Both the position numbers and the translations under genes were made by a program. A stretch of 45,523 nucleotides of DNA, the filler included, from Jimgerdemannia flammicorona (lineage: Eukaryota): NCBI GenBank assembly GCA_003990765.1. It is 2 parts of 2 records of this genome, joined end to end, with 100 filler letters (N's around TTAATTAATTAA, not from the genome) between each part and the next. Parts side by side here need not be neighbours in the genome. Positions count along the whole stretch, not along the records: positions 22,814 to 45,523 come from RBNJ01001221.1; 1 more part is not named here. One strand, given 5' to 3'. The notes under the pieces are model-generated. The model ran no database searches and was not told the DNA's origin. It was given only the letters and a program-made list of their open reading frames with translations. Shown piece after piece: positions 11,425 to 45,523 of this stretch (within the stretch, counting starts at the first letter, position 1; every line of letters starts with the position of its first letter).

Positions 11425-11472
11425 AGTTTTCAAAAGACTTGACCATTTGGCTCAAGAACCCAGCTATCTACA

Positions 11473-14400: not shown

Positions 14401-17050
14401 GAGGATGAAAGTGAGGCCAATTTCCTGCAAGAACTAGGAAGTAATTTTGATGCCCCAAGGGACCAAGAAAGCGAACAAGAAGACTCTTTCATTGGAGTTA
14501 ATGGTGTTGAAGGTCTGGAAGAAAGTATTGATAGAGCCATTAATGCAAGGGCAGCACTTGAGTTCGCAGGACCATCTGCTCAACCACCACTACCACTGGT
14601 AGAAAATCGGATCATGTGAGCCTTTTGTCAAGGCATATGTGAACATTTCATCAGCTTCCACTCACCAAGAGATGATTGCAGCAATTGCCGAATCCTGGAT
14701 CTCAAGAAGGTTCCAATGCTAGAAATTGATGACAAGGACAAATTGAAGCAAGCACTATCCCACAGCCGAATACAACCTCCAACCCCAAAGACCTTCAAGA
14801 AGACCTATAAGGGAGGACAGAAGATCCTCGCCCACCAAACATTCAAGTCCCTTACTATCGAAGGAGAAAGCAGCAGCTCTTACACAATCACCCAGGCCCT
14901 CCAGATCACACAGCCCACCTATAACAAGTATCAGAAGAGATTCCCTACCAGTAGGGAAGTCAAACAGTGAAATGAAAACTTTGTCAAGAAGGGACATTGT
15001 GATTGTGGAAAGACCTTTACCTGCCACTGGTGTGAACATTGAGATGTTCACCTTAGTGAAGATGTCTACAAGAGTTGAGTCAAGAGAAAGGATCCCACCC
15101 TGCAAGAACCTCAAATTCACTGGGCCTGTCAGAAGTACAAAGAAATCAACCATGAAGGAGATTGCAAGTTCAAGAGCAAGATCTCTATCTGGGACCTACC
15201 ATTGGAAGTTCTTGCCATCATTCGCTGGTACTGCTGCCCTCATCAAGGAAAAGAAGGTATCAATCTTGCCTTTATCCTTATAGAAGCTCTGGACCCTCTA
15301 GGAAAGACTGGATTCAATTACACAAGAAACTCAAAGACAGGAGCTTACTGGCCTTTCTTCAAACTGGAGCACATGGACTTCTCACCTACAATGGCAACAG
15401 CTGAAGCGCCATTTCTCAAAGCTCAACCAATTATCCAGGTCAAGCTGCTTTCACCCTGGGCACAGCCTCCTCTTGCACAAATAGAAGGATCAGTTGGTTA
15501 TGACCTCTGCCTCCCCTACCAAGCAAGAATCTGACCCAGAAGTACCAGGATTTTTGACCTACAGATTGCACTCACTATACCACCTGGGTATTATGGACAA
15601 TTGGCCTCAAGATCCTCATTGGCAACCAAAGGAGTCACAGTAGAAGGAGGAGTCATCGATCAGGACTACTGAGGTCCCTTGAAGGCCATTATCCACAATT
15701 CTAGTAGAACCAGCCAATTCTTCAGTCCTATAGAAGCCATCTGCCAAATCCTGTTTATCAAGACATCACAGCTGACCATCCAAGAGGTAGACCAACTAGA
15801 AGATATCAACAGAGGACAAGAAGGCTTTGGAAGCACCAATAGAAATCTACGGACACCACCTATCGAGGTTCATTTAGCAACAGTTGCTCAATTCTGACAA
15901 ATGAGACCCCACATCTGTCCCCCAATCCGAGCAAGAGAAGACATCCTCCTGCAGCCCTACCAGCAAAAAGGCCTAGATGTGCACCTACTAGTAGAAGCAA
16001 ACAACTTGATATTTGCACCATCACTGGAGCTTCAAAAGGAATACCACATCCTCCTGGCTGAAGAACGAATTCATAACCAGATGTCACCAATCCACATCCC
16101 TATCAGAAACTTGGGCTTCAAAGTGATAACTATCCCCAAGGGAACAACACTGGGATATTTTGAACCACTGATAGACACCTATGAGGAAGAAGTCTTCAAA
16201 TTCTTGGGAAATGGTAAGCCCTCTCCGGTGAGACTGACGGTACCAGGGAGGAAGACTTAGCAAATTCAGCAATCAAAGCTGTCGATATCGAGACAACTCT
16301 AATCAAGGACCAGCAACAACAGATACAGGAGTTGATAGAGGAGTACAAAGATATATTTACCACCACATATGATAACTTCCCACCATATCAATATGGAGAA
16401 CACCCTATATATCTGGAGATGCAAGACCAATCTGACAATGACCCTACCGAACACCACATCATCTGATTGAATTCGAACAACAACACATAGATGAAATGCT
16501 ACGAAATAGAGTCATCAGACCATCATCAAGCCCCTGGGCTTCACCAGCAATCATAGTACCAAAGAAAGGAGGATGGAGATTAGTTGTGGATTTCAGAAAA
16601 CTCAACAAAGTCACTACAGAAGATGCCTACCTACTGCCAAGAATTGATGACCTCATCAATGCTCTCGAAAAAGCCAAGTACATGACCACTACTGACCAGT
16701 TCCAAGGATTCCAAGTAATACCCATTGCCAAAGAAGATATCTGCAAGATGGCCTTTATCACCAGATGAGGACAGTATGAATACCTACGAATGCCCTTTAG
16801 ACTCTGCAATGTACCTGCCTCATTCCAATGAATGATGAACTATGTCTACCGGGACCTCATTGGAAGAAATGTAGAGTATATATAGATGATGTAATCATCT
16901 ACTCTGAGACATTCAAGCAGCATTTGCAAGACCTCCGTGAAGTATTCAATACCATTTGAAATTCAGGACTCAGACTCAATGCCAAGAAGTACTTCTTTGG
17001 AAAACATCAAGTCGAATATCTAGGATATATTGTCTCAGCTCAAGGACGAC
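11473..17050 (+). pseudogene. gag-pol: Gypsy gag-pol polyprotein pseudogene (single frame from gag to ~16260)
   Basis: ORF fragments at 11473, 12541, 12910, 13657, 14311, 14716, 15202, 15679 and 15901 share one frame; capsid-like KFHG..NEDIEEF (~12313), CFNCGNQGHIQRNC (~13228), ILVDTGA (~14000), RT SSSPWASP, DFRKLN, LPRIDD, YIDD (16879-16890), YLGY. Confidence 0.9.
15433..15840 (+). pseudogene. dut: trimeric dUTPase domain within Gypsy pol
   Basis: all five motifs: VGYDL, ASRSS, GVIDQDY*G, ICQI, RGQEGFGST; two internal TGA stops, the one in DY*G at the conserved Arg. Confidence 0.92.
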
Positions 17051-17129
17051 CTTTCACCAGTAACATTCGGGTGACACAAGACTCAGACAACACTTTTTAC
17101 AATGTTTTTGGTGTCCGACAACTAATAAC

Positions 17130-19044
17130 ATAGATGGCAATGATCGATCTGGTGAGCATACTGGCCAGGGGGGTGATGGCGCCTTTGGCTGGCAGCAGGT
17201 GGGGAGGAGGGGAGATGGTTTGGGGATGCCAGGGGCCTCGATGGCTAGCCGAGGCCCCAGCGGTGGAGGGAGGGGAGGTCTGCGGCAGAGAGGAGGGGAG
17301 CAGTCGACCTTTGCTGACAAGGTCAGGATGGGGAAGATAGCTTCTGGGCTGGATAGTTGGCTGGGCCTGGGGAAGGCATCAATGGCTACTGCTGGAGGTC
17401 AGGGAGGTACACCCCAGGGTACTTCTGGTGGTAGGGAAGGGGCCGGAGTAGGGGCTGGAGATGTGACTGTTGATGGGGCTGTGACTGGGGATCTGGAAAA
17501 AAATCCAGATGTGACAGCGGTTGGCAATTCGGGACTTGGAGTGGGCACGAGGCCCAGGGACCTGGTGGATGGGGTGACGGGCATGGTGTTGGCCCTGTTA
17601 CTCAAGAAGTCGAGGTCCGAATTCATGGTCACGATGTGCTTCCGGGGCTTGGCAGTGACGGTGAGGATGATTTTGGGGCTGGTGGTACAGGAGGCTAAGG
17701 GAGCGGCATCGGTGAAGTTCTTGAGGGGAAAGGAAGGGGTTGAGGTGGGGTTTGAGGAGGAGGATGCCTTATTGGCAGCCATGGAGAAGGGGGTGATGGT
17801 TGGCGGGGTTGTGGTCCCTATGGCCCGGTGTATGCGCTGGGACCCCCGGGTGGTACAGTTGACGGTGTTGGACTTCCCTATGGTGTCGAAGGAAAGGACC
17901 AGGGAGTTGGTTGTGGAGGCGATCAAGGAGTATGGCGAGATTGTGGATGTTGAGTTCAAGGTCTGGGAGGGCACGGAGCTTAGAACTGGAGACGTCGATG
18001 TCAGGGTGAGGCTGGCTGGAAAGGAGAATATGGGGAAGTCGAGGGACTGGCCAGCAGTGCTGAGGTGGGGACCGGTGGAGTATAATGGAGTATAAGGTCA
18101 CTAGGGTGAAGGGGACTCCGGAGGAGGAGGAGGACCTGTTGGAGGCTCTGGAGGATCTGGAAGGGGCAGTTGCAAGGAGGAGATTAGCCTGGACAGAGTT
18201 TGAGACTAGGACAGTGGTGGGGGAGGTGGATGGGAAGAGGGTTCAGATGGAGAAGGGGGCCTGGGAGAAGTTGCAGGGGAGGAGGATTCAGAAGGAGTTG
18301 TTGGCGAAGTTGGGCAGGGGTGGGGTTGGTGGAAGCTCCAGGGCAGGGGCTGCAGGGTTGCAGGAGAGTGCCTGGGCTGAAGGGGGAGAAATGGCCCAGG
18401 GCAGGGCTCAGATTGGAGTCGGGGAGGGGAGGGAGGATAACTTGGAGGTGGATGCTGAAATGGGAGAAGGTGGGTGCTCTCAGTATAGTGTTCTGAATGG
18501 GGCAGGAGGCGAGGATGTACCGGATGAGGAGTGGGATGAGTCAGTGAGGAGGAGCGCGCTGGTGGACCCCGAGGTGGATGGGGGATAGATTGCTCAGGGG
18601 GCGGCAGAGGCAGTAGATGAGGAGAAGTGGATGTGGAAGACCCTGGAAGGGGTAGTGGCTGAGGAGCTGGGGGGTGAGGACTTCAGGGTGATGGAGGAGA
18701 GGCATTGGGAGGAGATTCTATATGGGGAAGAGGTGCCAAGGAAGATGAGGAATGAGATCCTAGCTGTCCTCCTAGAGTCGGTTGAGTATTAGGTTGATGA
18801 TCAGCGAGAGGAGGAGCTTAGAAGGATTGTGAGTGATAGGGCACTTGTCTTGTGGAACTCGAGGAAGGGACTAGAGAAGTGGCGAGCAGTCTGCTTGGAT
18901 TACAGGGTAGATATGGAGGAGGTGGACAGGGTGGAGTGTCAGGAAATCTTGGGGGCACTGGATGCTCGGGATATTGCAGAGGGTGAATTGGAAGCTGAGT
19001 AGCTCTTGGACTTGGCAAGGGATGAGATGAGCATGGAATTATAG
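17130..19044 (+). pseudogene. LINE ORF1 (RRM-like), disrupted
   Basis: colinear with 43337-45271; start codon reads ATA; 10-bp duplication frameshift at 18076-18095; stops. Confidence 0.88.
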
Positions 19045-19075
19045 GTTGAGGTCTCTTCTACAATATCTATTCAAT

Positions 19076-22000
19076 ATGAACAGTACAACTAGGATATTCT
19101 CATTGAACATTAATGGGTTACGGGGGGAGGCTAGGAGGAAGTACATCTTTGGTTGGCTTCGGGGTCTGGATGCGGACCTCTTCTTCTTACAGGATGTTCG
19201 GTATGATGCAGATGTGGATTTACAGGACTGGACTAAGAAAAGGGGGGGTGCAGCAGTTTGGAGGGGGAAAGTGGGTATTCTTGTTTGGAAAGGGATGGGG
19301 GACATTGGGGATATTGGACATTGGGGGTCGCGGGTGGTGTGGGGAGTATGGAAGAGGCCTGGATGGGGCTTGCTGATGGTTGGGTCTTGTTACTGCCCAG
19401 CTGAGAGAGGGGAGAGAGTGGATTGGATTCACAGATTGAAAGAGGTTGGTTTATTGGGAGAAGTTGGGTTTGACTGTATGGGGGGGGACTTCAACATGGT
19501 ATGGGATAAGGAGTTGGACAGAACTGATGGAGGGAGAGGCATGCGAGGTGAAAGTAGTGGGTTGGCGGACTGGTTGGAGACAGAAAGGTTGTGTTCTTTA
19601 GTGGACTCAGAGAGATATTTTTGGGCTGATCAGCGGGTGTACACCCATTGGGCAGCAGGACTGGGCTCTAGGATTGACTGGGTTCTAACAGCAGAGTGTT
19701 GGGGAGCAGATATCTGAATGGTGCTGGGAGTTATATAGTGTCCATGGTCTGATCACTGGGGGTTGCTTGGAGGGGGGAGGTTTGGGGGAAATGAGGATGG
19801 GCCCAGACATTGGCAGCTAAATTCTTCCTTGTTGGAGGATAGGGCATTGTGGGAGGGTTGGGAAACAGAGGTGGTTGGTATTATTAGCAGGTGGCGGGAT
19901 CAAGGACTGGTGATTGGGGACCACTGGAGAAGGTTGAAGGTGAAGGCTCAGGGGTATTGGAGGGAAGCAGGGAAAGGAAAGTGTGCTCAGCAAAGGGGGC
20001 AGGTGATGTGGGCCTCACGGCATTTGGCAGTACTCATGGAGAGATGGGTGGGTGTGCTGGAGGATAGGGCCAAGACTGATTGGCATATTGCGAGGATCCG
20101 GCAGGAGGTGGAGGAGCTCAAAGGAGTGTTACAGAGGGAGGAAGAGGAGCAGTTGCAGGGGATGGTGGCCTGCTTACGCTGGCAGGGGCTTGAGGAAGGG
20201 GAGAGACCTACCAGGTTCTTGTTACGGTTATTACAAGCACGACGAACAAGGCAGCAGTGGGAGGGAGTTTTGGATGAGAATGACGAGCTGGTGGTGGGGA
20301 CTCTGGCGATTTTGGGCCTATTGTGATCCCAGTGGGGGAACCTTTGGAGTGAGGATGAAGGGGGACTGGATGCTCAGGACATTGACAGGCAGCTGGGGGA
20401 TTGGCATCCGGACCCTGTCATGGGACTGGGGGCATTGGGGGACCTGGTGAGTGGCGAGGAGATTTGCAAGGTAGTGGCTTCTACGAGTAAAGGGACAGCT
20501 CCAGGAGAGGATGGACTCCCCTGGAATTTTTGGCAGAAGATGACAGGGGTGCATGAGGTACTAGAGGAAATGATGGCCATGTGTGATGAAGTTCTTTGGT
20601 CTGGTGTCTGGATTGGGGGACAGCACTTGGGGCTGGTCGCCTTACTATATAAGAACAAGAGCAGGAGGGAGGATTGAAAGAACTGGCAGCCGATCATGCT
20701 TCTGGACATGGACCGCAAACTGGTGACGAAGATCTTGGTGCTGCAGTTGCAAGGGATTGTGCAGCAAGTGCTTGGTTTGGAGCAACGTGGGTTTGTCAGT
20801 GGTCAGTTGATTCGCGATGGGACAGCCTGGGTTCATGGAGTGATTGAAGGTGCCCGGGCTACAGGGGTGGATGGCAGATTGGTATTTCTGGACCAGGAGA
20901 AGGCTTATGATAGAGTGCGGAGAATATGGCTGGAAGGAGTGCTGAAGCAGATTGGTATCCCCCTGGGGTTCCGAGGTTCATTGATCAGACTCTTGGAGGA
21001 CAGTCAGGTGGCATTGGTCATCAATGGCCACTGGGGGGTGACCTTCCCCCTGGGCCATGGGGTGCCACAAGGGGACCCCTTGTCACCCATATTGTATGCC
21101 CTTTCCCTAGAGCTACTACTGGACAGGATTCAGCGTAAGATTGGAGGTTTGGACATTTTAGAGGTGAACTGGAAGGTGGGGGCCTTTGCTGATGACATGG
21201 TGGTCAGACTGGGTTCCTTGGGGGATATTGGGGAGTTGCAGAGGATGGTGAAATGGTATGAGCGGGGTTCTGGTGCTAAACTGAACTGGCACAAATGTGA
21301 GACGCTGGTGCTGGGCGCTGGGATTGTAGGTGGTGATGTTGTTGGGATGGTGGTTCCAGCTGGTGAACCAGTGCGCTACTTGGGGATCTACTTCTCGGTA
21401 TTCGGATCTCTTCTTCTCCGGGCATGGTGGGACCGTAAACTGCTGGAGTGGAGCGATGTCTTGATACAATGGGGAGGCCGGCATATGTCCCTTGCCGGAA
21501 GGGTGATGGTGTTGAATGTGTACTGGATGCCAAAGCTGTGGTATGTTGGATATCATTTGGATTTCCCACTGTGGGTGGTTAAGGGGTTGTTGAAGATGGC
21601 GAGGTCATGGATTTGGGGAGGGCAGTGGAGCCAGGTTGGTTGGGAGGTGCTCAAACTGCCCTTGGAAAGAGGTGGACTGGGCTTAGTGAACTTTACTAAG
21701 CGGCTTTTATGTCTGAGGGCCTGGTGACTAAGGAGGGCGAGTGAGCTTAGAGGTCGGGAGTGAGTGCCACTCATGCAGAGGTTGTGGGAGGTTCAATACT
21801 CCCCACGTAGTGGCTCCAGCGACCTGCTTGCAATGGTGGCCATGGAAGGGAGCCGGAGGATGCGGTTTACAGGCTTTTGGTGGGGAGTGGTGGATGGAGC
21901 TAGGAAAATCGGCCTTCGGTGGCGAGGTGATGAGGCTGAGGAGGTTTGGGGACTGCAGATGTGGAGATGGGATAGGCTTCTATTGGGTGGTGCTCTGGTG

Positions 22001-22713
22001 GAGGACTTTCAGCTTGGCAAGGGTCTGGAGTGCCTGCGAGGCCTAGGTGGAGACCTGTGGCCTGAAGCCTGGCAGAGGGTTGGAATCGGGGAAGAGTGGG
22101 ATTGGAATGGACTCTGGCTTTGGAGCAAAAGGGTGAGGCAGTGGCTGTCCCCAAGTTCTGGTTGGTGTAGTGGTAGATCCTATGGCGGAATGTGATGTTG
22201 AACTATTGGTCTGGTCACTTGGTGGATGGTGGGGTATTCGAGTGCGAGGATTGCTTCAATGTTGGTCAGGAGGGAGGAGTGGTACAAATACCTGAACATT
22301 GGCTTAGCAAGTGCGAGGTTTTGGGGGAGTTTTGGAGATGTATAATGGACAAGCTAGGGTTGGGGGCTGGGGGAGGGAAGGGAGGGGGGAGATGGGGAGA
22401 GCTTCACCTGTGATTAGTGGGTGGGGTCAGGGATGAATGGCTGACCCTTGGTTGGGCCTTGGCTATGTAGGTTGGATTGGCGGAGCATTGGGTGCATGTA
22501 TTTGAGGACGGGCGTCGGGTTGGGGTTAGTGAAAAGGTGGCATGGTGGGAATAGTTGCTATTGGACATTTTAAATAGCTGGTGGCAGGGTTGGGGTATGG
22601 GTGGGGGGTTCCGCAGGGGTTTGGTGCAGTGTATCTCCCAGAAGAGTGGGGGGAGGGTTCGAGTAGTGGGTGGTCAGTTGGTGCTTGGGCAGGGGGAGGT
22701 AGAGGGAGAGGGG
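19076..22713 (+). pseudogene. LINE ORF2: APE endonuclease + reverse transcriptase + C-terminal Cys/His motif, disrupted
   Basis: SLNINGL, GGDFN, SRIDW, SDH; APGEDG, QRGF, FLDQEKAYDRV, GVPQGDPLSP, FADD, YLG, GGLG; CEDC...EHWLSKC. Confidence 0.93.
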
Positions 22714-22813
22714 NNNNNNNNNNNNNNNNNNNNNNNNNNNNNNNNNNNNNNNNNNNNTTAATTAATTAANNNNNNNNNNNNNNNNNNNNNNNNNNNNNNN
22801 NNNNNNNNNNNNN
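22714..22813. other. artificial assembly gap/linker
   Basis: 44 N + TTAATTAATTAA (stops in all six frames) + 44 N = 100 nt. Confidence 0.95.
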
Positions 22814-22917
22814 AGACAAAAAAAAAGAGAGGGCAGTACTTGATGGGTGGTGGGGGAGGGGTTTGGCCTATATAGTCTAAGATCTCTTCCAATAAAAATC
22901 CACAGGACATTGAGTCC

Positions 22918-22995
<78 letters not shown>
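22814..22995 (+). mobile_element. probable LINE 3' UTR and poly(A) tail
   Basis: G-rich stretch, AATAAA at ~22890, long A run 22922-22995. Confidence 0.6.
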
Positions 22996-25086: not shown

Positions 25087-25137
25087 AACTATATAGAAAC
25101 ACCTTGTTATTCTGAATTATAAGCTTAAATTATTCAT

Positions 25138-26084
25138 TTTTTTTTTTTTTTTTTTTTTTATAGTTACTTGGACTCTGTTCCTTTATTAATACCCATCTAT
25201 CCCATATAAATACAGTGATCCCACCCCCTATCCAATCTCCCTAGGGGGACTCCTCCCCTCTACCTCTTCCCAATGAAAGACCACCTTGTCTAACACCATC
25301 GCCACCCTTCCACCACTCTGCTCACAGATCCTTACCACCAAACCACAATACTGACCCCCCTGAGGGCCCCAACCCACCCACCATCCAGTCAGCAGATCCC
25401 CCAACAGCTCCTCCCACCTTAATACCTTCTCTTGCAGCCCCAACCGCTGCCCCTCCTCAAATACAAAAAGCCAATGTCCAGTTAATCCCACCCATACTGC
25501 TAGTACCCACCCTACAGTGAGCCAACTATCACCCACCCCACCCACAAGCCAAGTCCTCAAGTCCCCCCAGCGGCCCCCCTCCCCCCCCAGCCTCCTCCCT
25601 ACACCCAATCTATCCCCTATTTCAGCCCAAAACTCCTCCAAAACCTCACACTCCCCCAGCCAATGTTCTGGCATCTGTACATGACCCTCAGCTCACCCAA
25701 CATCGTAACACTCTTCACAGTCGAATCATCCACCCTCTACCAAATGCCCCATGTGGAAATTCAGCATGACATTTCTCCTCAACATTCTCTACCATACCAC
25801 CCAGAACTTAGGAGGCAGCCACTGCCATACCTCTGCACTCCAAGACCAGATACCTGCCCAGTCCCACTCCTCGCTGATCCCAGCTGCCTGCCAGCCACCT
25901 GGCCAAAGATCCTGGCCAAGCCCCTGCTGATACTCCACTCTCTCCCCAATATCGAACATAGCCAGTGAAGTATCCCCCAGGAGCAGCCTATCCCAACACC
26001 ACATATTAGGCCCCCACACTGCTTCTCCCTCATTGCCTTGCCATCGCAGGCCAATCTGGTGAGCTCCATCCGCCACTCCCCACC
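25138..26084 (-). mobile_element. 5'-truncated LINE, copy 2, subfamily B
   Basis: poly(T) at ~25137-25158; ORF2 C-terminus ...EHWLGEC...PPREIG*; 16-bp TSD AGCTT(A/G)AATTATTCAT at 25122-25137 and 26085-26100. Confidence 0.92.
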
Positions 26085-27522
26085 AGCTTGAATTATTCAT
26101 TATCTCTGCCTAATTTACTACTTTTATCTTATTCACCAACTCTGCCTTCATCTTAATCTTATATAGTCTTTTGCTATTTAACTGCTCTCTCATTGAAGTT
26201 AGAAGTTACAAACTTACTGATACATATTGACCTTATTTAGGCATAATATAGTCTGCTTGATTTTGTATACCTTCATAGTCTAGTATAGTCTATCTGTAGT
26301 CTGCTCCTGATTTTGTACACCTTTATGGTCTACAGTCTGTCTGTAGTTTGCTACTCCTTAGTTTTATAGAACTGAGGAAATTTATTTACAGCTTGATATA
26401 TATTACTCATGACTTGGTACTTATTGTTCATACTGAGACATATTTTGTTTATCTTAGAATATAATCTGTTATCTTTAGATATGAAGAGATTATGGTAAAG
26501 GAGAGTAAAAAAAGACATAATTCTTCTAGATAAAGATCTCTTTTTATATCTGCAATGTTCATAATAGACATATATATACAGATGTTAAAAAGTCTAATAA
26601 GTGAATATAAAGCTTACTTACTTATATTTAGTTAATATGATAAAGTACAAGTATATTAAACAAGTATATATTAAATAAGTATATATTAAGCAAGCATATT
26701 AAGCAAGCACATTAAGAGAAAAAGTGTAAAGCCAATCAGATAAAGAATTTAAAGAATTCTATTTTAGACTAGTATGTTTCATATTTATGAACTTACTGTT
26801 AAAATTCATATTATCCTTTAAATTCTTCCCTACTTCAAATCTAATATCAATATAAAGCTTTTTTGCTCATATTGTAATCTAAAGTACAAATCTGCCTCAG
26901 GATTAACTTGACATATCTATAAGATGCATGATATACTTATATAATATTAGAATGACAAATCAATCCTTGAATTTCCAGTTTATCAAGATTTTAGTAACTT
27001 TAATATTATACTATTATTATTAATAAATTTATCTATAGTTTATAAGTTAACCTTAAATTCTACATATATTTCAAGTTGGAGTAATTTATATAAATGAACT
27101 TGAAAGATTTCAGATAATTATACTAAACATATATATAATTTAAGATAATATCAGTATGATAGTCTATTTTCAATTCAAGAATAGAAAAGTTTATTGTTTA
27201 GCAAAAATGACAATTTAATTTAAAATTAGAGAAGCCCATCTACTATATTGGAGTTTGGTAAGGATTATATTATTCACAAACCAATTGGTGATCAGATTAT
27301 CAATAGCAAGAAAGTACTTATATAATATAACAAATTTATTTCTAAACTCAGATAGATACCTATATATAACTGATATGAATAATCCTTTATATTCTTGAAA
27401 GAATGATAGAGAAATTTGGTTTATAAATCTATTATTCACCTTTCTCCTATAAAATTCATATTACACCAACTTCAAGTAATGGTTTTGACATAACTCAGAG
27501 AAAAGATACTATAAAAATATTA

Positions 27523-31879: not shown

Positions 31880-34517
31880 TTAGTGGCCCAAACTCCACCA
31901 AGACTTCAGACACATACATGCCCAGATTGTCTCAGTATTCAATACACACCTCTTTGGAGCAATGAGGTCCACCCCATCTGAGAACACCCACTCGATGGGA
32001 GCACTGGAGGCAGGAATCGCCAGGTAGTCCTGAGCCATGCCACATAGGCTGGGGAAGTCCATTTGATATAGCTGCATACTCTGGTGGATAGAGTGGTAGT
32101 TAGATTGATGGATTAAGTTAGCCTAATGCCCACCTGACAATGCCCACCTGACAACCCACCTTCCACCAGTTGAGTACCTCCATGCCCTCCAGCAGGATCA
32201 CATGGTCACTGGCAAGGTAAATGGTAAGTTCATCTATTGATGGCAGCTCTTCCACTGATGGCTCCCTCTTCCTCTTTCTGCTGAAGTAAATGTGGGACAG
32301 GAGGGATTTCTCAGTATATTTGTCTGGACTTCAGCCAGAACCTTGCAGTGGTGCATAGTTTTTCCAGTACACTTCGATTACAGCCTGCTTGATTCTCTCA
32401 ATGAAGTGCTGCTCCCAGTCCTGATCTTTATGGTATTGTAGTTTTAAGCATAGGTCCAGTACTGTTCAAAGAAGAGAAGAGAGTGAGCTTTTGCAGGGGT
32501 TTCTCTGTTTTGGAAGGGACAATGGCCACACACCAACATTGACATATCTGTACTGATTGAGTATATAGTAGTATCTGTTTGGGAGTAGTACTTTCTGAGC
32601 TTGCTAAGAGCAACCTCTATAGTGTCTCTCTGATCTAGGCTCAACCATAAATTACCACAATCCTCTAGCCTGTCCTCAAGCTTGTCCTCTAGCCAGTCAA
32701 TCAGAAGGTTATATATATACTAGTATTGCTGAGCTTATTGTTGGGGTCATTTGTTTGACTATATCCTTTGTACAATCATCAAAACACTGGCAGTTATATG
32801 TGGTGAGGTGTTGCATTGTGCAGAGGCAGACAAAATGAGTATAGAGGCTGATAAAATGAGTGTAGAGCTAGAGCAATCACCACTTACTTCCAAAACTCTG
32901 ACAACATTCCTAAGTACGTCCCACTTGCTTTCACCTAGAGCCTCGGCCTATATTTCCTTGTCAGCAGCCACTGTTGAATCTATTGGCTTTTTTTGTTTTT
33001 TTTTTAAAATAAATTATCTGAAACAAGTTGCTTCAGCTGACTGAAGAAAAAAAGGATGTATACCACAGCAAACTCCAGCACATGCTGGATCATTGCAAAT
33101 ATTGAGTTCCAATGCATACAGACGTCCAATATAAGCTCTTTCAGGGCTAAACTGATTGCCCTACACTATGTAGCAAATTTGTCTCATCATTGTGGGGATG
33201 ATTGGACTGATACAATCAGATTATGCAGCTTGGAAATTATACTCAGGGCCCCTCCTCTCTCGGATATTTTGTCTATGTGTGTAAGATAGTCCTGAATAGC
33301 GAGGTTCAGTACATGGGCCTGGTATCGTATACAGCAGCTTTCTGTACCAAAGGCTACATTTTCCTATTTGAGGCTGGCTGCTAAAACTTTGAAAAATGTT
33401 GAGTTGTTTGTGGCATTGTCCATCATAATGACCAAAATCTGTACTTGAAATATTTAGTTGGTGAATTTATGCAAAAATAAATAATTAATAAAATCTGGTT
33501 TGTTTTAGGACCTCTCTCAAAATGCCAACCTGATGACAAGCCCCCCTTTTTTACCTTAGTTGTGATCCCAAGCTCCTGGATACAACTAATAAAAGCATCT
33601 GTGATGTTGTCTCCAGAATGAGGGCCAGCAAGTTTGATGAAGTCAAGGGTAAGAGATTTAAGCTACCAATTGAAGTCAATCCAATGACCAGTAATGCCCA
33701 GAAATGAAATTGCATTAGGGAATGTCTATGTGTTGATCATAAACAAAATTTTGCCTGCCAAATTCTGCTTATTAAATGTGAGGTTAAATTGGTGTACTCT
33801 TTTATATAATTCAGCTTGCAAAGGTCACAGTGCTGCCCTTATTTTACTTGAAGTGTCTGGTGAAGATTGTTATACTCCTTCCTATAGGCCTCCAGGACAT
33901 CTTTGCGAATAGTATCGACACTTGGCAAATATAAATCATGCTTGAGAAGGCCAAAGATGCTATGCAATTGATCACTCTTGATGGTTATGAATGGTTGATC
34001 TGTACATACAATCTAGCGAATGAGCCAATTTCGAAATTCTGCTGAAGAGTATGACTAAATATTTTTGATTAAATGGCATTGTTGGTACAGAAATGGTTGG
34101 GCAATCAGATAAATGTATCCACCATAGCTTGGATGTCAATTTTATTTGTCTCCGTGTTCTTTTTGATTTTGTCAGAGTGCTTGTCTTTTATGTATCAATT
34201 TATATTTGAAGTCATACCCCTAAGCATTTTGAACTTCTGGCTGGTGCAGTTTATGGGGGTGGATGAAATAATATCATGTGTGTGTCAAAACAAACAAAAG
34301 GTATCAATAGGTGTGTCTTAATTTTTTACCTACAATAATTACAAACAATATCATCTCCTATCTTAGCACAATGTTGCCAGATTTCAGAGCAAGGATTGCA
34401 TGGAAGATGTGGAACTATCAGGGATGTTTGACTTGAAGCATTATTGGTACTGTGAACTATTGAAGACTGATCTGTTGACATATGTGTTTGTGTGTTTGTA
34501 TATACATGTGTATGCAT
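31880..34517 (-). pseudogene. intron-containing hAT transposase pseudogene (BED finger, DDE core, dimerisation domain)
   Basis: IWQHC....VCNYC; decayed D1 region (..PNAISFLGITGHWID), GPHSGDNI, DNATNN, AHVLNLA, DVCMHWNS, FPSLCGMAQDYLAIPASSAPIEWVFS...CMCLKSW. Confidence 0.88.
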
Positions 34518-34900: not shown

Positions 34901-35881
34901 TTGACTTGTTTGGAGCACTACTCAGTGGGTATACTTTGGGGTTTCTGATATGATAAAAGGTGGACAGGTGATGGCAGTTGGCGAGGATGAGCTGGTGGAT
35001 GTCCCAGAGGAGGGGTGAGATGAGATAGCTAGTGTAGAGACTGATACCATGATGATTGATGCAGGAAGGCCAGGAATGCTGGGAGAGAAGAAGGTGGAGA
35101 ACCTGTTGTAGATGAGCAAGATAATGAATAACTTCATGGCTGAGGAGCTGAGGGAAGTGGACCTGTGTGTGATGCCTGAGGAGAACTGGACATGGATTCT
35201 GTATAAAAATAGAGTGGTGGAGGCACTGAAGACAGAGATACTTGCAATTTTCCTAGAGAAGAAGGGTTATGAGATTGATAAGGTGAGGGAGACTGAGCTG
35301 GCAGTCATGGCTGGTGAGCAAGCTACCTACTGTTGGGCAGAGCATTATGGGTTACAACTCTGGCAGAAGGCTTACCTGGAATATTATAAGGATCTTGAGG
35401 AAAAAGAGGATGGGGAGATGGCTGAACTTCTGGTAGGGTTGGAGATATAGGCAGCTGAAGAGAAGGCACTGGTTGCAGAACATAACTTGGACTTAGCATA
35501 GGAGGAGTTAAATGTGAATTTGTAGAGAATGTGATTGATAATCAATATTTATTCCTTATGAATAGTACAACTAACATTTTCTCTCTAAATGTGAATGGGT
35601 TACAGGGATCTGGACAGCATAAGAACATTTTTACTTGGCTTAAGGAATTGGAGGCTGATCTCTTTTTACTATAGGATGTACAGTGTGAGGGTGAGAAGGA
35701 TCAGATAGAGTGGACTAGAGAATGGGGTAGAGCTACTGCTTAGATTAGTAAAGTGGCGATTCTGGTGAGAAAGGGTAGAGGAGATTTAGGGGGCATTAGG
35801 AGCTAGGGTGACTGTTTGGTCTAGAGAGACTGGCATTGGCCTGGGTGGGAGTCAGTGAGGGTTGGCTCCTGCTATTGCCCT

Positions 35882-37919
35882 TGTAAGTGCACAACCTCCA
35901 AGCTACTGAAATCACATATCACCCACTGAACAAGCCACTGAAATCACACACAACCTCCAAACAAATCTGGAAATCACCTGTATGATCACAAAGCTGAGTC
36001 AATACAAAGTCATGGAGCACAAGATTTATATAAACAGAATCTTACCAATTAGGACCAAATATATATATACTGAGCACTAAGACATGTCAAAACAGAGAAC
36101 CAAAACAAACAACAACTACAACTTCTGAACATATACAAATATGACCACCAAGATCTATAACTACATCCGTGCTGACATTTGGAATGCTATTGTTAACCAA
36201 GCCACACCCTCTCTGCCCCTCATGAATATCCATAGTCTAGCACCCCTCTACTTCATAGAAGCCTAATGGAATGCTCTGAATATGCTTAATGAAGTCCACT
36301 GGATCAGACAAATCTCAAGCTACTACTAGATTGGCTGCCTCCTAGAAGATATGGTCAAACACCACCATGATATGGACATTACTCAGATATCTCAACACCA
36401 GAAGCTCATCACCTACAAACATCAAGAACTCTTCTATGAGTACAGCATCTTTATTCTCCATCTCCAAGTTACTACCAGTGAAATGGTCACTATTCTGTTC
36501 TATGGCCAAATTGATGACATGATCCAAGAACTCAACCACAAGTACCTCAAATACATTCAGACTACAGACAGAACCTTTCTGCACCCCAATGACCATATCC
36601 TGCAAATGCCTCAAGTCAGATATACTATGAAAGATGTCTATGATATAATCTACTTCAATGAAGATGAAGTAGAAGACAATGATCCCTCTGACACCAATAT
36701 GACCTCAAGCCAAGGATCTCTGCCAACTCTGATCATACCACCAACCTTGCTAATAAACTTACAACAGTTCATAACCACATACAAGACTTATTGGGACAAT
36801 GACCACTGGTATGAATACCAACTTACATTCACCACCAATTACTTCAACTATAATGAAGAGACCAGAGAACACAATCTGTATCTTCAGACAACCCTCGAGA
36901 TCGAACCAATCACTCCACCACCCAAGTATGAGTGACATGAACTACAGCCACTAGCTTACTACAACCCCATGACTCATAGCACTGTAACTTATAGAAGGTA
37001 TGCAGACAGTAAATCTGATGAAAGCAAAGATGATGTATCCCTCCTTCACCCACCAACTCTATATCCAGCATATGAGACAGATGATGCTATCTTGTAAGAT
37101 GGTGACCAAGTCCCAATATATTACTATCTCAGCGAATAAGGAGAATTAATCCACGAACAACTTTTCCTAGATAACTACTTTATTAGAAATGATATCATCA
37201 ATGGTGATGTCATCGAAGACTACTCAGACAGTATCTAAATCTATAGATAGCCTAGCAGTCATAGTATAGTTAGATTAACCTTGTATGATATGACTGTGAA
37301 CTGACTCAGCAGTCAGATGATCTCTCAACATATCAGATCACACTTGTACTATTATATTTCGACTCAGCAAGGTACTTAGTGCTATATTCATATTCAGCAT
37401 AGTCCAGATAGCCCCTCACTAGTATAAATACCCCCTCTCCCAGACCTCAGAATCTCAGACTTGCATAGACTTGAATACACAAGAACATTCCTGAATACTT
37501 CCCCACAATATCCCTTCACATAACTACTCCTAGTATAGCAATATCATGAATAGTGAATAACCCTATTTAATAACCCATAAACTACTCTTAAATAAATCTG
37601 CTCCCTGTTAGATCCCACTTCTAACCCCATCACAAAATTTCCTAATTGGGTATTGTCTGCAGCGATATGCCAATTCAACTAAGCTGGTCTTAGTTTCTTG
37701 TACTTCCTGAAATATGGAAAATCCTGAACATCCAGAACTAGTCTGAAAAAGGACTTTGGTTGAGACGTCAACTCAATCTTGAAATCAATAAGCATAGAGG
37801 ATGTACTCTATATGAAATTGATCTTGACCTTAAGAAAACAGTCTTCCAGAATATCCAGAACTTCTAAGAAACCCTTCCAGAACTACATAATGGTTATCTT
37901 AATAAGTAATCCTCTTACA
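35882..37919 (+). mobile_element. solo LTR (2038 bp) of a second LTR retrotransposon family
   Basis: TGTAAG...CTTACA termini; exact 5-bp TSD GCCCT (35877-35881, 37920-37924); LINE APE sequence resumes on the far side; TATAAATA at ~37423. Confidence 0.88.
36141..37238 (+). pseudogene. unknown 365-codon ORF inside the solo LTR
   Basis: one frame from ATG 36141 to TAA 37238 (includes ORF 36351-36935); no frameshifts; five internal stops, each one C>T change from CAA/CAG/CGA. Confidence 0.7.
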
Positions 37920-40900
37920 GCCCTACAGTTAGGAGTGAGAGGATTGCATGGATTAGGGATCTGCTGAAGGGGAATATTCTCTTGAAGGAAGGAGTAGATG
38001 TTCTGGATGATGATTTTAATATAGTACAGGACCTACAGTTGGATAGAACTGATGGAGGGAGATATGCCAGCAGAAGGAGTGGTGGTCTGGATGCATGGGA
38101 GGAGGTGGAGAACCTTAGTTCCTTAGGGGATATGGGCAGAATATGGTGGGGTGACATGAGAGTCTACACACATTGGGTGAATGGATTGGGTATAAGGATT
38201 GACTAGATTCTGACAGCTGAATGTTGGGGTGTTGATGTTTAAAAGACTTTAGAGATAGTGTGGTGTCCATGGTCCAATCACTGAGGGCTATTAAGGTAGA
38301 AGCAGTTTGAGGGGAGTGGAGATAGACCCAGATATTGGTACCTTAACTCCTCCCTACTGGCTGAGAAGGTGTTGTGAGACCTGTGGGTAGAGGATATTTA
38401 AGTGAAGATTAATAACTGGATATATGAGAGTTTTTCTGTGGGTGTCCATTAGATGAGGTTGAAGGAGGTTATGAGGATTTATTGAGGAAAAGCTAGTAGG
38501 GAGGCTGAGAGGCAGTGAAGGAAGAGAGTATGGTATGCTTCCAATAGGCTGATTAGATTGTAGATAAAATGAACTGATTTGCTTTCTTTGGCAGAGATGG
38601 AGGATTGGAGGTTGGAGTGGGCAAAATTGGAGGTAGTAGAGCTGTAACTGATATTGAGAGAGGAGGAGGAGACTTGAATGAAAGGAATGGCTGCCAGACT
38701 ACAGTGGCAGGGGCTTGAGGAGAGAGAGCAGCCTACTAGGTACTTGTCTAGGCTCCTTCAAGCTAGGAGGGTGTGACATCAATGGGATGGGGTCTTGAAT
38801 ACAGAGGGAGAAATAGTATATAGCACATAATAGATCTTGAAGGTACTGAAGGAGAGATGGAGGAGTATATAGAGTGAGGAGAAATGGGGTGCAGATGAAG
38901 TGGTGATTGGCAACATACTGGAGGAGTGGGAACTGCTACAAGTAGAGAGACTGGGTGACCTGATCATACTAGTCCAGGAGAAGGAGATCCAGAAAGTCCT
39001 TGTGACAATAAAGGTTGGGACAGTGCCAGGAGAGGATGGGTTATCTTGAGACTTCTGGAAGAAGATGGCGAAGGTCCCTGGAGTATTAAGAGAGATGGCT
39101 GCTCTCTGTGACTATGTTCTTCTGAATGACAAGTGGGTTGGAGAGCAGAACTTAGGGCTGGTGGCCTTATTATACAAAGATAAGGAGAGAAGGGAGGACT
39201 GGAAGAACTGGAGACTAATCATGCTTCTGGATATGGACAGAAAGATGGTGACTAAGGTGATTGTTGCAAGACTACAGAAGGTTGCCCAACAGGTGCTGGG
39301 TGAGGAGCAGTGAGGCTTTGTTGGAGGCAGACTTATCAGAGATGAGACTGCCTGGGTGCACAGCATCATTAAAGGGGTACAGACTTGTAGACTGGATGGA
39401 AGACTAGTCTTTTTGGATCAGGAGAAGGCCTATGACCATGTTCAGTAGGTATGGCTGGAAAAGGTACTGGATAGAATAGGTGTTCTCCCACAATTTCGAG
39501 CTGCTATGTTGAATCTGTTGGAGGGCAGTAGGGCTGTACTGATGTATAATAGTTACCAAGGTTTGGCATTTCTCCTGAGAAGAGGAGTTCCTCAGAGAGA
39601 CCTGCTGTCTCTTATCCTTTATACCCTTTCATTGGAACCTTTGATGGATAGGATACAATGGAAGGTAGTGGGGCTCTCTATATATAGTGTGGTGTGGAAG
39701 GTGGGGGCCTTTGCAGATAATATAGTAGTTGAACTTGGATCAGTGGCAGATGTTGAGGCACTTAAGGATACAGTAGAATAGTATGAGGCACACTCTAGAG
39801 TAAAAATCAACTGGTATAAGTGTGAGACAATGGTTTTGGGGAATGGGCTTATGAGAGGGGACATTATTGGAACAATTGTCCCTACAGACAAGGTGGTGTA
39901 ATATCTGGGTATCTTCTTTTCTGTATATGGATCTGTTTTGCTATATATATAGTGGGAAAGGAGGGTGGCCATGTGGGGGGAAGCCCTTCAAGGTTGGAGA
40001 GGTTGTCACATCTCTCTAGTGGGTCAGATATTGATTTTGAATGTCTACTGATTCCCCAAGCTATGGTATGTGGCCTATTACTTAGACTTCTTAGCTTGGG
40101 TAGTAAAGAGACTGACAAAGCTGATCAGAGATTGAATTTGAGCAGGGAGGAGGTCCCAGATCAGTTGGGATACTCTTGTGACACTAGTGACTTGAGAAGG
40201 TCTAGGCCTTGTGGACTTTCCTAAGAGGCTGTACTGCCTATGAGCTTGGTGGCTGAAAAGGGCTGCTGAACTACAAGGGGGGGGTTGGGTACTGCTGATA
40301 CAGAAGGTGTAAGAGATGAGATTCTCTCCTTGAGGGTTATTGGGAGATTTGCTATCTTTAGTGGGCCTGGATGGTAGCCACTGACTGTAGTATAAGAGCT
40401 TCTGGTGGGGGGTGGTAGATGGAGTACACTACATTGACCTGTACTGGAGGAGTAATGAGGAGGAGATGCTATAGAGACCAGCTATATAGAGATGAGACAG
40501 GCTACTTCTGGGGGATATTCTGCTTGCTGAGTTTGATATTGGAGATAGAGTAGAGTGTCAGCAGGGTCTTGGTCAGGATATTTGGCCAAGTAGTTGATAG
40601 GTAGTGAGGATTGGTGAGAAGTGGAACTAGGCAGGAGTCTGGTCATAGAGTACTGAAGTAAGGAGATAGTTGCCTCCCAAGTTCTGAGTGGTATGATGGA
40701 GGATACTGTGGAGGAATATAATGTTGAATTTCTATGCTGGTCATCTGGTAGATGGTGGCTAGTTGGACTGTGAGGAGTGTTATAATGTGGGGCAAGTTGG
40801 GAGTTTTGTACAGATATCAGAATATTGGCTAGGAGAATGTGAGGTTCTGGGGGACTTTTGGATAGTAGTGGGAGATCAGCTGGATGTGGAGAAGAGGCTG

Positions 40901-41329
40901 GATGGGGAGCATGGGCATTGGGAGGATTTGAAATCTTGGCTAGTAGAGAGTATAGAAAATGATTGGCTCACTATAGAGTGGGTGTTAGCTATTTGGGTAG
41001 AGCTGGCTGGGCACTAGCTCTTCATATTTGAGGAGGGGAAACAGTTAGGTCTGCAAGAGAAGTTGCTAAGGTGGGAGGGATTGATGGGTGATTTATTGAC
41101 AGGATGGTGGGTGGGCTGGGGTCCCCAGGGTGGGCAGTGTCACTGTCTGGTGGAAGGGGTATGTAAACAGAGTGGTGGACAGGTTGCAATAATTAATAAT
41201 CTTATAGTCTTTAATTGTGAAGAGATAGAGATAAGAGGGCCCCCTAGGGAGATTGGATAGGAGTGGGCTTATTGTATTTATATGGGATATAATGGTGTAT
41301 TAATAAAGGAAGGAGTCTAAGTGACTATA

Positions 41330-41397
<68 letters not shown>

Positions 41398-42760: not shown

Positions 42761-43336
42761 TATTAAGAGTTTATTTGATGCACATATGGCAAACCTACTT
42801 ATACTGAAGCTATATCTCTAAAACTCATCAAGGATATTAGACTGAAAAAGATCTAATAGATCAGATATATATATTAATATTTATTTATATATTTATTTTT
42901 AGATTAAAATAAAGCAATTCTAATTTTTGAAGCTATTCATCCTAACTATATAATAGTATTTATATTTGATATAGTTATAGACATTTAATATATATATACT
43001 TTAGATACTCTAGTTACTTATAAAATGAATTTTAAACTAGATGGAAAATAACTATTAATAAAAGTTATAAAGTTTAATAATATTAATTAAGAAATGATAT
43101 TTTTATCAAAATATCATAATATCAAACTTTATAGCAAAGCAAAAGACTTAAAGAAAGTACTTGAAGAAAGAGAACTTTAGTTAAAAGAAGGATTTAAAAA
43201 ATATATATATAAAAAAAGATGCAAAAAGAATAATTACTATACATTCAAATTTTCAGGAGACACGCGCCTTTTTCACCAGTAACATTCGGGTGACACAAGA
43301 CTCAGACAATACTTTTCACAATGTTTTTGGTATCCG

Positions 43337-45271
43337 ATGACTAGCAACATGGACAGCAACGATCAAACTGGTGGGTGTACTGGCCAGGGGGGTGACAGTG
43401 CCTTTGGCTGGCAGCAGGTGGAGAGGAGGGGCGATGGTTTGGGGATGCCAAGGGCCTCGATGATAGGTGGAGGCACTGGCAGTGGTGGAAGGGGTGGTCT
43501 GAGGCAGAGAGGAGGAGAGAGGTCAACCTTTGCGGACAAGGTCAGAATGGGGCAGATAGCTTCTGGGTTGGATGGTTGGCTGGGCTTGGGGAAGGCGTCG
43601 ACGGCAGCTGCTGGGGGACAGGGAGGTATGCCCAGGGGAGCCTCTGGTGGTAAGGTTGGAGCCAGAGTAGGGGCTGGAGATGGTGCTGTAACTGCTGATG
43701 GGGTTGTGACTGGGGATCTGGCAAAAAATCCAGATGTAACGGTGGTTGGCAATTCAGGGCTGGGAGCGGGCACGAGACCCGGGGACCTGGCAGATGGCGT
43801 GACGGGCATGGTATCGGCCCCGTTACTCAAGAAGTTGAGGTCAGAATTTGTAGTCATGATGTGCTTCAGGGGCTTGGCAGTGACAGTGAGGATGATTTTG
43901 GGGCTGGTGGCACAGGAGGCCAAGGGAGCGGCGTCGGTGAAGTTCTTGAGGAGAAAGAAAGGAGTTGAGGTGGGGTTTGAGGAGGAGGACGCCTTGCTGG
44001 CAGCCATGGAGAAGGGGGTGAGGGTTGGCGGAGTTGTGGTCCCTATGGCCCGGTGCATGTATTGGGACCCCCGAGTGGTGCAGTTGACAGTGTTGGACCT
44101 CCCAACTGTGTCGAAGGAAAGGACCAGGGAGTTGGTTGTAGAGGCAGTCAAGGAGTATGGTGAGATAGTGGATGTTGGGTTCAAGGTCTGGGAGGGCACG
44201 GAGCTCAGAACTGGTGATGTCGATGTCAGGGTGAGGCTGGCTGGGAAGGAAAATACGGGAAAGTTGAGGGACTGGCCGGCAATGCTGAGGTGGGGACTGG
44301 TGGAGTGTAAGGTCACCAGGGTGAAGGGGACGCTGGAGGAGAAGGAGGACCTGTTAGAGGTGCTGGAGGACCTGGAAGGGGCAGTGGCGAGGAGGAGATT
44401 GGCCTGGAAGGAGTTTGAGGCCAAGACGGTGGTGGGGGAGGTGGATGGGAAGTGGATTCAGATGGAGAAGGGGGCCTGGGAAAAAATGCAGGAGAGGAGG
44501 ATCCAGAAGGAGCTGTTGGCAAAGTTGGACAGGAGTGGGGCTGGTGGAAGCGCAGGGGAAGGAGTGGTTGGGTCACGGGAGAGCGCCTGGGCTGAGGGGG
44601 GTGCGATGGCCCAGGGTGGTGGTCAGATCGGAAGTGGGGAGGAGAGGGGGGGCGATTTGGAGGAGGACACCGCAATGGGTGAGGGGGTGCACCCTCAGTA
44701 TAGTGTTCTGGAAGGGGCAGAGGGAGAGGAGGAGCTGATGGATGTGCCGGATGAGGAGTGGGATGAGTCAGTGAGAAGGAGCATGCTGATGGACCCCGAA
44801 GTGGATGGAGGGCAAATTGCTCAGGGAGCGGCAGAGGCAGTGGATGAGGAAAAGTGGATGTGGAAGACCTTGGAAGGGGTGGCAGCTGAAGAGCTGGGGG
44901 GTGAGGACTTCAGAGTGCTAGAGGAGAAGCATTGGGAGGAGATCCTATGGGGGGAGGAGGTGCCAAGGAAGATGAGGAATGAGATTCTGGCGGTCCTCCT
45001 GGAGTCGGTTGAGTATCAGGTTGATGATCAGTGGGAGGAGGAACTTAGGAGGATTGCGAGTGACAGAGCTACTTTCTTGTGGAATTCGAGGAAGGGACTG
45101 AAGAAGTGGCGCGCTGTCTGCTTGGACTATAGGGCTGATATGGAGGAAGTGGACAGAGTGGAATGTCAGGAAATCTTGGGAGCACTGGATGCTCAGGATA
45201 ATGTGGAAGGTAAATTAGAAGCTGAGCGATGCTTGGATCTGGCCGGAGATGGGATGAGCATGGAATTATAG
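43337..45271 (+). CDS. LINE ORF1 protein (Gly-rich N-terminus, RRM-like core, acidic C-terminus); true start probably ATG 43349
   Basis: 644-aa open frame directly upstream of the APE ORF; VQLTVLDLP...EYGEIVDV...RTGDVDVRVRL resembles the L1/Tx1 ORF1 RRM region. Confidence 0.85.
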   Translation: MTSNMDSNDQTGGCTGQGGDSAFGWQQVERRGDGLGMPRASMIGGGTGSGGRGGLRQRGGERSTFADKVRMGQIASGLDGWLGLGKASTAAAGGQGGMPRGASGGKVGARVGAGDGAVTADGVVTGDLAKNPDVTVVGNSGLGAGTRPGDLADGVTGMVSAPLLKKLRSEFVVMMCFRGLAVTVRMILGLVAQEAKGAASVKFLRRKKGVEVGFEEEDALLAAMEKGVRVGGVVVPMARCMYWDPRVVQLTVLDLPTVSKERTRELVVEAVKEYGEIVDVGFKVWEGTELRTGDVDVRVRLAGKENTGKLRDWPAMLRWGLVECKVTRVKGTLEEKEDLLEVLEDLEGAVARRRLAWKEFEAKTVVGEVDGKWIQMEKGAWEKMQERRIQKELLAKLDRSGAGGSAGEGVVGSRESAWAEGGAMAQGGGQIGSGEERGGDLEEDTAMGEGVHPQYSVLEGAEGEEELMDVPDEEWDESVRRSMLMDPEVDGGQIAQGAAEAVDEEKWMWKTLEGVAAEELGGEDFRVLEEKHWEEILWGEEVPRKMRNEILAVLLESVEYQVDDQWEEELRRIASDRATFLWNSRKGLKKWRAVCLDYRADMEEVDRVECQEILGALDAQDNVEGKLEAERCLDLAGDGMSMEL

Positions 45272-45302
45272 GTTGGGGTCTCTATTACAACATTTCTTCA
45301 AT

Positions 45303-45523
45303 ATGAACAGTACAACTAGGATTTTTTCATTAAATGTTAATGGGCTCTGGGGGGCGGCTAGGAGGAAGTATTTATTTGGTTGGCTTAAGGGACTGGATGC
45401 AGACCTATTCTTATTACAGGATGTTCGTTATGAGGCAGATGTGGACTTTCAGGATTGAACTAAGGAATGGGGGGGCACAGCAGTTTGGAGGGGGAAAGTG
45501 TGTATTCTCATTCGGAAAGGGAT
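45303..45523 (+). pseudogene. LINE copy 4 ORF2 start (APE endonuclease) with premature stop
   Basis: MNSTTRIFSLNVNGL...LFLLQDV; TGA at 45456-45458 where copy 1 has TGG. Confidence 0.85.

Follow-up and report, generated by a model that had tools for sequence, protein, structure and literature searches.

To our knowledge, the long terminal repeats (LTRs) of retrotransposons are regarded as control regions that encode no product, and long open reading frames (ORFs) in their unique 3' (U3) region are textbook matter for a few retroviruses only, chiefly for the sag gene of mouse mammary tumour virus (MMTV). The sag ORF lies wholly within the U3 of an unusually long LTR and is thus present in every LTR copy, and Sag, its product in this vertebrate retrovirus, is a membrane glycoprotein of type II. 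The Tas protein of foamy virus joins a DNA-binding N-terminal part to an acidic activating C-terminal part. In most genomes, solo LTRs outnumber full elements. Here we describe a window of 45,523 nucleotides (the whole stretch of DNA analysed, to which all positions refer) from Jimgerdemannia flammicorona (assembly GCA_003990765.1), in which an inserted unit at 35882-37919 carries a decayed ORF of 365 codons. We read this unit as a solo LTR from a family of LTR retrotransposons present in many copies, with a complete 365-codon gene in its long U3, and assign to this reading a probability of about 0.6.

Extra ORFs have been described in several LTR retrotransposons. An excerpt of one study presents ORF0 of the Ty3/gypsy elements Retrosat2, RIRE3 and RIRE8 as a fast-evolving orphan ORF that has no homologue outside the family, the LTRs of these elements exceeding 3 kb (PMC3485330). 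The LTR retrotransposons of bdelloid rotifers have extra captured ORFs beyond gag and pol, according to an abstract (PMC5408684), and the LTR variation of crapaud in Podospora is concentrated in the 5' half, according to an excerpt (PMC10787394). A phrase search of the literature, which depends on wording, has incomplete coverage and leaves supplements outside it, yielded no non-retroviral element with a gene in its LTR, by which absence in print is not established. Among the matches listed, the literature on 'LTR ORF' and similar wording mostly concerns MMTV. Two candidate precedents (PMC6673714 and PMC12037069) were rejected, as 'LTR ORF' there denotes the ORFs of whole elements and not LTR-internal genes. 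The LTR-internal gene is a known layout in a few retroviruses and apparently not in ordinary LTR retrotransposons.

Borders and copy number of the inserted unit

The unit lies in a degraded copy of a long interspersed nuclear element (LINE), and a better copy of the same LINE is found in the window. The features on which the analysis draws are as follows.

35882-37919, plus strand: inserted unit, probable solo LTR, 2,038 bp, with 6-bp inverted ends TGTAAG / CTTACA
35877-35881, no strand: target-site duplication, left, GCCCT
37920-37924, no strand: target-site duplication, right, GCCCT
35900-36030, plus strand: 5' part with short repeated motifs in copy-variable number, putatively U3-enhancer-like
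36141-37238, plus strand: decayed ORF of 365 codons, with stops at codons 42, 63, 265, 319 and 333
37422-37430, plus strand: TATA box GTATAAATA, 184 bp 3' of the terminal stop codon, candidate genomic-RNA promoter
37591-37596, plus strand: poly(A)-like signal AATAAA
34400-35881, plus strand: left part of the degraded recipient LINE copy, endonuclease region, start approximate
37920-41390, plus strand: right part of the degraded recipient LINE copy, at a constant offset of 18525 to the better copy
17052-22990, plus strand: better LINE copy, with endonuclease and reverse transcriptase (RT) domains and a poly(A) tail

The unit 35882-37919 is a cleanly bounded, integrase-type insertion. An earlier note on this DNA had defined it by its ends and an exact 5-bp target-site duplication, and this definition stands in full: TGTAAG is found at 35882, CTTACA ends at 37919, GCCCT is exactly paired, and the paralogous site is empty. 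The unit thus has the TG..CA ends with short inverted repeats that are expected of an LTR, and its 5-bp duplication, exact on both sides, falls in the expected range of 4-6 bp. The empty site is that of the LINE copy 17052-22990, a paralogous copy in the same window, which has one uninterrupted GCCCA at 19395-19399. The left flank of the unit matches this copy up to 35880 (equal to 19398), with 35543-35880 aligned to 19061-19398, where Pfam places the Exo_endo_phos domain at 19031-19717. The right flank picks up again at 37932 (equal to 19411) in a local alignment, from which this position was taken, MAFFT having placed the right flank badly. Since the flanks are colinear with a LINE copy that has a single GCCCA, the unit entered as one piece and duplicated 5 bp. 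The recipient LINE ends in a poly(A) of ~55 nt at about 41335-41390.

The unit belongs to a dispersed multi-copy family. Contig pieces that match it at 80-100% likeness number 3027, 470, 479 and 38 in four runs from two studies; three of the four runs are labelled soil metagenome, all from one study, and one of these three may be the sample of origin of the window. In run X1, the 3027 pieces split into identity classes of 230, 679, 1306 and 812, and the counts of 470 and 479 belong to runs X2 and X3, respectively. Depth in these runs changes sharply at both borders, 35882 and 37919. One contig of run X2 bridges 35872 to 37916 with 2043 bases skipped, which is weak evidence for an empty site, because the LINE itself is repeated. 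The base composition of the unit (A 726, T 531, C 504, G 277) makes its plus strand rich in A and C, unlike its two flanks, which are G-rich. Scans of the unit for Rfam families, tRNA genes and tandem repeats returned nothing relevant.

The frame, its relatives and its product

Judged by its relatives, the frame 36141-37238 is a real gene belonging to this family of repeats; the relatives are open, and its start and stop are conserved. Searches of 5.8 billion clustered proteins and of 1.84 billion representatives returned exactly two relatives of the ORF protein, P0002 and P0003, both of them metagenome protein fragments. P0003 (128 aa, from a 1,180-nt JGI contig) is 79% identical to the window protein and has the first Met in common with it. 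P0002 (247 aa, from a 998-nt ENA contig) is 60% identical and fully open, and has the last residue in common; its alignment with the window protein contains 151 identities and 195 positives in 251 positions, with two in-frame gaps. When neutral drift of the window codons to 60% identity was simulated, 4.9-6.0 stops were expected in 248 codons and zero stops occurred in only 0.1-0.55% of the runs (2,000 per setting), whereas P0002 has none. P0003 says little on long-term constraint, because it is nearly the window sequence once decay is set aside. No host-gene homologue of the frame was found among the 1.84 billion representatives. We regard it as quite probable that the gene is functional in active copies.

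The window copy of the gene is dead, and it decayed by C>T/G>A changes. The frame 36141-37238 contains 6 stops including the terminal one, compared to 20, 36, 12, 31 and 34 stops in the other five frames. Its internal stops are TAA, TAG, TGA, TAA and TAA, followed by the terminal TAA, and an in-frame TGA is located at 36126-36128, 12 nt upstream of the ATG. The earlier note had reported a single frame without frameshift, all internal stops being one C>T away from a sense codon, and had supposed that the gene would persist in solo LTRs. The first of these claims is borne out by the alignment with P0002 and P0003, which needs no frameshift and only two in-frame gaps of 2 residues (against P0002). 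The second is true, yet it is true of any stop codon (from CAA, CAG or CGA) and therefore carries no information. As to the third, continued expression of the protein from the solo copy in the window, which holds 5 stops, is not supported.

The direction of decay is given by comparison with the relatives. Three of the five internal stops sit where the relatives have Arg, Gln and Trp, so that C>T/G>A alone suffices, and the remaining two are unreachable by such changes from the relatives' residues. As many as 25 of the 27 mismatches between the window protein and P0003 can be explained by C>T/G>A changes that lead to the codon of the window, and 1 fits the opposite direction; for the more distant P0002, the corresponding numbers are 36 toward the window, 20 in reverse and 40 neither. 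In run X1, differences counted from the window base to that of other copies comprise 123 A>G and 143 T>C versus 84 C>T and 59 G>A, the window having mostly A or T where the other copies carry G or C. The observed-to-expected ratio (o/e) in the unit is 0.13 for CpG and 1.59 for TpG. The 36 listed transition differences are found in mixed contexts (CpG, CpA/TpG and others), and for this reason no single mutational process, such as repeat-induced point mutation as opposed to CpG decay, is named. Throughout the window, CpG is depleted wherever measured (o/e 0.0-0.40), the AT-rich spacers included, with an excess of TpG/CpA in the repeats, a pattern that points to cytosine methylation of long standing in this genome or to a related C>T process.

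According to the searches made, the product is an orphan, and it is not gag, pol, env or a Sag-like membrane protein. Its 201-aa open piece matched 0 Pfam families, and the sole match at E <= 10 among the proteins P0001-P0003 was a 16-residue stretch of TMEM51 with E 0.16, hence nothing credible. The same Pfam library did detect zf-CCHC, protease, dUTPase and RVT_1 in the neighbouring elements. No credible relative was obtained in a profile search of PDB with the ORF protein, and the Atlas gave for P0002 no usable feature match and structure matches with template modelling (TM) scores <= 0.30. Confidence in the structural models is low: the mean predicted local distance difference test (pLDDT) value was 30.9 for the AlphaFold2 model based on the three-row alignment A2, and 0.39 for the Atlas model of P0002. 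The low-confidence AlphaFold2 model has helices within residues 1-141 and little regular structure after them. P0002 has an isoelectric point (pI) of 4.05 and contains 18.6% Asp+Glu, 9.3% Tyr and 9.7% Pro; the pI of P0003 is 6.3. No membrane segment was detected, the maximum 19-residue Kyte-Doolittle mean being 1.42.

The acidic, aromatic C-terminal part is probably disordered. Solubility, acidity, a helical head and a disordered acidic, aromatic tail would together suit a regulator or adaptor that acts in trans more than a structural protein. That the product is a regulator of transcription or silencing is nevertheless doubtful, and the transactivator or anti-silencing factor proposed in the earlier note remains a guess; the points that fit it are only the acidic, aromatic and probably disordered C-terminal part and the lack of a membrane segment. 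The observations made in support of that proposal fared unequally. Agreement was found on the missing signatures of gag, pol and env, since no such Pfam family matches and the ORF is not a recognisable gag/pol fragment, and also on the acidic/aromatic tail, which is conserved at the C-terminus in comparison with the relatives. A PPxY motif is indeed present in the window protein as PPPKY but reads PLSEY in P0002 and thus lacks conservation; neither CCAAT nor one of the TATA-like runs is shared by other copies.

LTR status of the unit and alternative explanations

Along the unit, the short repeats, the ORF, GTATAAATA and the poly(A)-like signal follow one another in an order that hints at an LTR. 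The motifs repeated in the 5' part are ACTGAAATCACA and CAACCTCCAA; their number varies, as seen from joints 35928>35960 and from backward joints near 35987-36012 in three runs. The sequences earlier pointed out as CCAAT (36045) and as TATA-like runs (TATATATATA at 36060-36069 and TATAAATA at 37423) are present in the window copy. CCAAT and one TATA-like run, however, are not common to the other copies: six contigs of run X1 have TCAAT instead of CCAAT, and the first TATA-like run, 36026-36032, is a decay product of the window copy, because most other copies have C at 36027, 36029 and 36031. If the genomic RNA is transcribed from GTATAAATA, U3 would contain the whole gene.

The last 700 bp (37218-37931) are 3- to 10-fold deeper than the 5' two thirds of the unit by summed depth in three runs. 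Pieces in the ORF part have 21-29 differences from the window per about 150-175 letters, and pieces near the 3' end have 7-21 per about 150 letters; the ORF-part pieces thus diverge more, and the depth step is partly a threshold effect. The remainder of the step fits LTR subfamilies that have a common promoter, repeat (R) region and unique 5' (U5) region and differ in U3. Taken together, the unit is likely to be an LTR.

A second element of the window is of interest for this assignment. It is a Ty3/gypsy-type element preceded by a decayed frame, with the following features.

About 11443-17051, plus strand: Ty3/gypsy-type element, gag frame from about 11443, ended at 17052 by a LINE insertion
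About 13225: gag zinc knuckle of this element
About 13970-14240: aspartic protease
15472-15837: dUTPase, between protease and RT
About 16557-17035: RT
9302-10309, plus strand: decayed pre-gag frame of about 335 codons, with 6 stops versus 15-24 in the other frames

The pre-gag frame 9302-10309 has an acidic, aromatic stretch at its end, and downstream of it, at 10642, lies GTATAAATA, a 9-mer identical to the TATA box of the unit at 37422. The candidate LTR start TGTAATTG at 9182 resembles TGTAAGTG of the unit. Between the pre-gag region and the frame of the unit, no significant similarity was detected (best matches of 15 residues, E 0.088 and E 1.5). The pre-gag frame may be a second, unrelated LTR-borne ORF. 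Gypsy elements with a dUTPase are discussed for fungi in an excerpt of PMC2864245.

Under the preferred reading, the unit would have inserted into a LINE copy, and recombination between LTRs would later have left a solo LTR. The gene would be located within U3, between the short repetitive 5' part and the TATA box, and active members, in which the gene is open, would produce from it a soluble and acidic protein that is rich in Tyr and Pro and helical in its N-terminal third. A full element would have the gene in its 3' LTR, behind pol and at the 3' end of the genomic RNA. The transcript of the gene might be subgenomic, spliced or LTR-internal and would end at the poly(A) site of the LTR itself, and the product would be expected to serve the element in trans, more as a regulator or adaptor than as a structural or membrane protein.

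Several points weigh against this reading. The window contains no copy besides the unit itself, and direct repeats of the unit enclosing gag-pol were not observed. The deeper last 700 bp could equally mean that most family members lack the ORF part, and other copies have G at 37592, which turns AATAAA into AGTAAA. The ORF protein has only two relatives, which were catalogued because gene callers report open frames and are thus ascertained as open, and without a confident fold the protein could be weakly constrained. Finally, what the unit has in common with the neighbouring element is layout, not significant sequence similarity.

In an improbable alternative, the unit is a complete small non-autonomous mobile element instead of one LTR of a pair, namely a single-gene cassette whose 6-bp inverted ends would be processed in trans by a retroviral-type integrase or by a DDE transposase (Ginger/IS3EU-like), with 5-bp duplications as the outcome. 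TG..CA ends, short inverted repeats and a short duplication also suit integrase-related DNA transposons. The unit looks self-contained, with TATA-like runs, an ORF and a poly(A)-like signal, and a paired copy is seen nowhere in the window or in public collections. Within the window, blastn (word size 7) and tblastn found no second copy beyond the unit itself; no unit-related DNA was matched in metagenome contigs queried with alignment A2 and then with P0003, or in viral contigs or genome contigs queried with P0002; and a 28-letter pattern from the well-conserved 3' part of the unit had no match in genome contigs or viral contigs. However, the inverted ends are of only 6 bp, neither direct repeats inside the unit nor a transposase was found, and a variable 5' part joined to a better-conserved 3' part suits LTR subfamilies. 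A like layout is moreover found directly upstream of gag in the Ty3/gypsy element of the window.

By another explanation, the unit is an LTR and the frame is a passenger without a role, either a captured host fragment or a relic that is open in young copies only on account of their youth. Against this, P0002 is 40% diverged, yet it has 0 stops in 247 codons compared to 5-6 by drift (P <= 0.006); both of its gaps are in frame, its substitutions are conservative (195/251 positives), and the positions of start and stop are kept. A host-gene homologue is also missing among the representatives searched. We consider a passenger unlikely, although the frame is an orphan of biased composition without a domain or confident fold, its two relatives were both ascertained as open frames, P0003 is nearly identical once the decay of the window copy is set aside, and the ORF-bearing part is less deep than the 3' part. 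A frame in R instead of U3, with a start near the 36060 TATA-like run and the gene as the first ORF of the genomic RNA, an ORF0-type leader in a very long R, is highly improbable. In its favour are the TATATATATA run 72-81 bp upstream of the ATG, the in-frame stop just before the ATG and the orphan ORF0 upstream of gag-pol in rice elements with LTRs over 3 kb (excerpt of PMC3485330). Against it stand the run at 36026-36032 being a decay product, so that the 36060 run may be one too, the presence of GTATAAATA at 37422 also in the pre-gag region of the neighbouring element, and a 1.5-kb R with a poly(A) signal far from the cap, with which most transcripts would be expected to end in the 5' LTR.

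Other elements of the window and comparison with known systems

Four or more copies or fragments of the LINE family are found in the window, and their pure poly(A) tails measure about 55-70 nt. Besides the recipient and the better copy, they include the following.

43271-45523, plus strand: further LINE copy or fragment
25130-26086, minus strand: further LINE copy or fragment

The sense strand of the LINEs has a GC skew of +0.4 to +0.59 at 51-57% GC, the adjacent spacers having 14-25% GC. The close relatives of the LINE RT (62-71% identity) are metagenome proteins, and its relatives with names are mostly from Mucoromycota, Zoopagomycota and Basidiomycota, with a few from plants, at 25-38% identity. 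At 22714-22813, the window consists of 44 N, TTAATTAATTAA and another 44 N, which looks like an artificial six-frame-stop spacer between assembly pieces; the sequences flanking it need not adjoin in the genome.

Remnants of other genes and elements were also observed. A TLDc-domain coding remnant (8487-9002, plus strand, Pfam E 1.3e-14) with an in-frame stop at 8772-8774 abuts the Ty3/gypsy element; its relatives are spread across eukaryotes, and the remnant probably represents a pseudogene or else two exons of a host gene. A remnant of the C-terminal dimerisation domain of a hAT transposase is located at 31898-32068 on the minus strand, in a read-through frame (Pfam E 3.1e-10). Two direct repeats of 236 nt each, 2513-2748 and 7385-7620 (plus strand), are 77% alike and 4,872 bp apart, and the C/T-rich stretch between them had no Pfam match in the three minus-strand frames tested. 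This pair could be the LTRs of an old non-autonomous element.

A broader proposal, which we advance tentatively and which may well prove wrong, is that the unit represents an LTR retrotransposon family with a complete LTR-internal accessory gene, such that every LTR, solo LTRs included, is a unit of promoter, gene and terminator for a factor that would act in trans for the element, and that the second, unrelated family of the window may do likewise. If this is true, LTR-borne genes would be a recurring strategy in this genome and not a retroviral oddity. Accessory genes would then ride in the duplicated part of the element, in two copies each, and would outlive the elements in solo LTRs. The practice of solo-LTR annotation would change, because solo LTRs are routinely masked before gene calling, and the gene would provide a handle on how such elements cope with host silencing.

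Among the described systems, the captured ORFs of bdelloid rotifer elements differ from this locus in that the abstract does not place them inside the LTR (PMC5408684). Variation in the 5' half of the LTR, as in crapaud, would explain the 3- to 10-fold lower 5' depth of the unit, whereas the ORFs described for crapaud, in the excerpt, are gag and pol only, with none in the LTR (PMC10787394). The rice ORF0 is likewise an orphan extra ORF in a long-LTR element, but the excerpt locates it in the internal region upstream of gag-pol, not within the LTR, and the elements are those of plants (PMC3485330). The foamy virus genes tas and bet and nef of human immunodeficiency virus (HIV) resemble the gene of the unit as 3'-terminal accessory genes overlapping the LTR, although they begin in the internal region and merely overlap U3. 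The layout of the window protein resembles that of Tas in outline, and no homology was found. It also differs from MMTV Sag, to which it has no sequence match and whose hydrophobic anchor it does not share (maximum 19-residue mean 1.42). In layout, sag is nevertheless the closest of these systems: if the LTR assignment holds, the unit, too, would carry a long ORF inside its U3.

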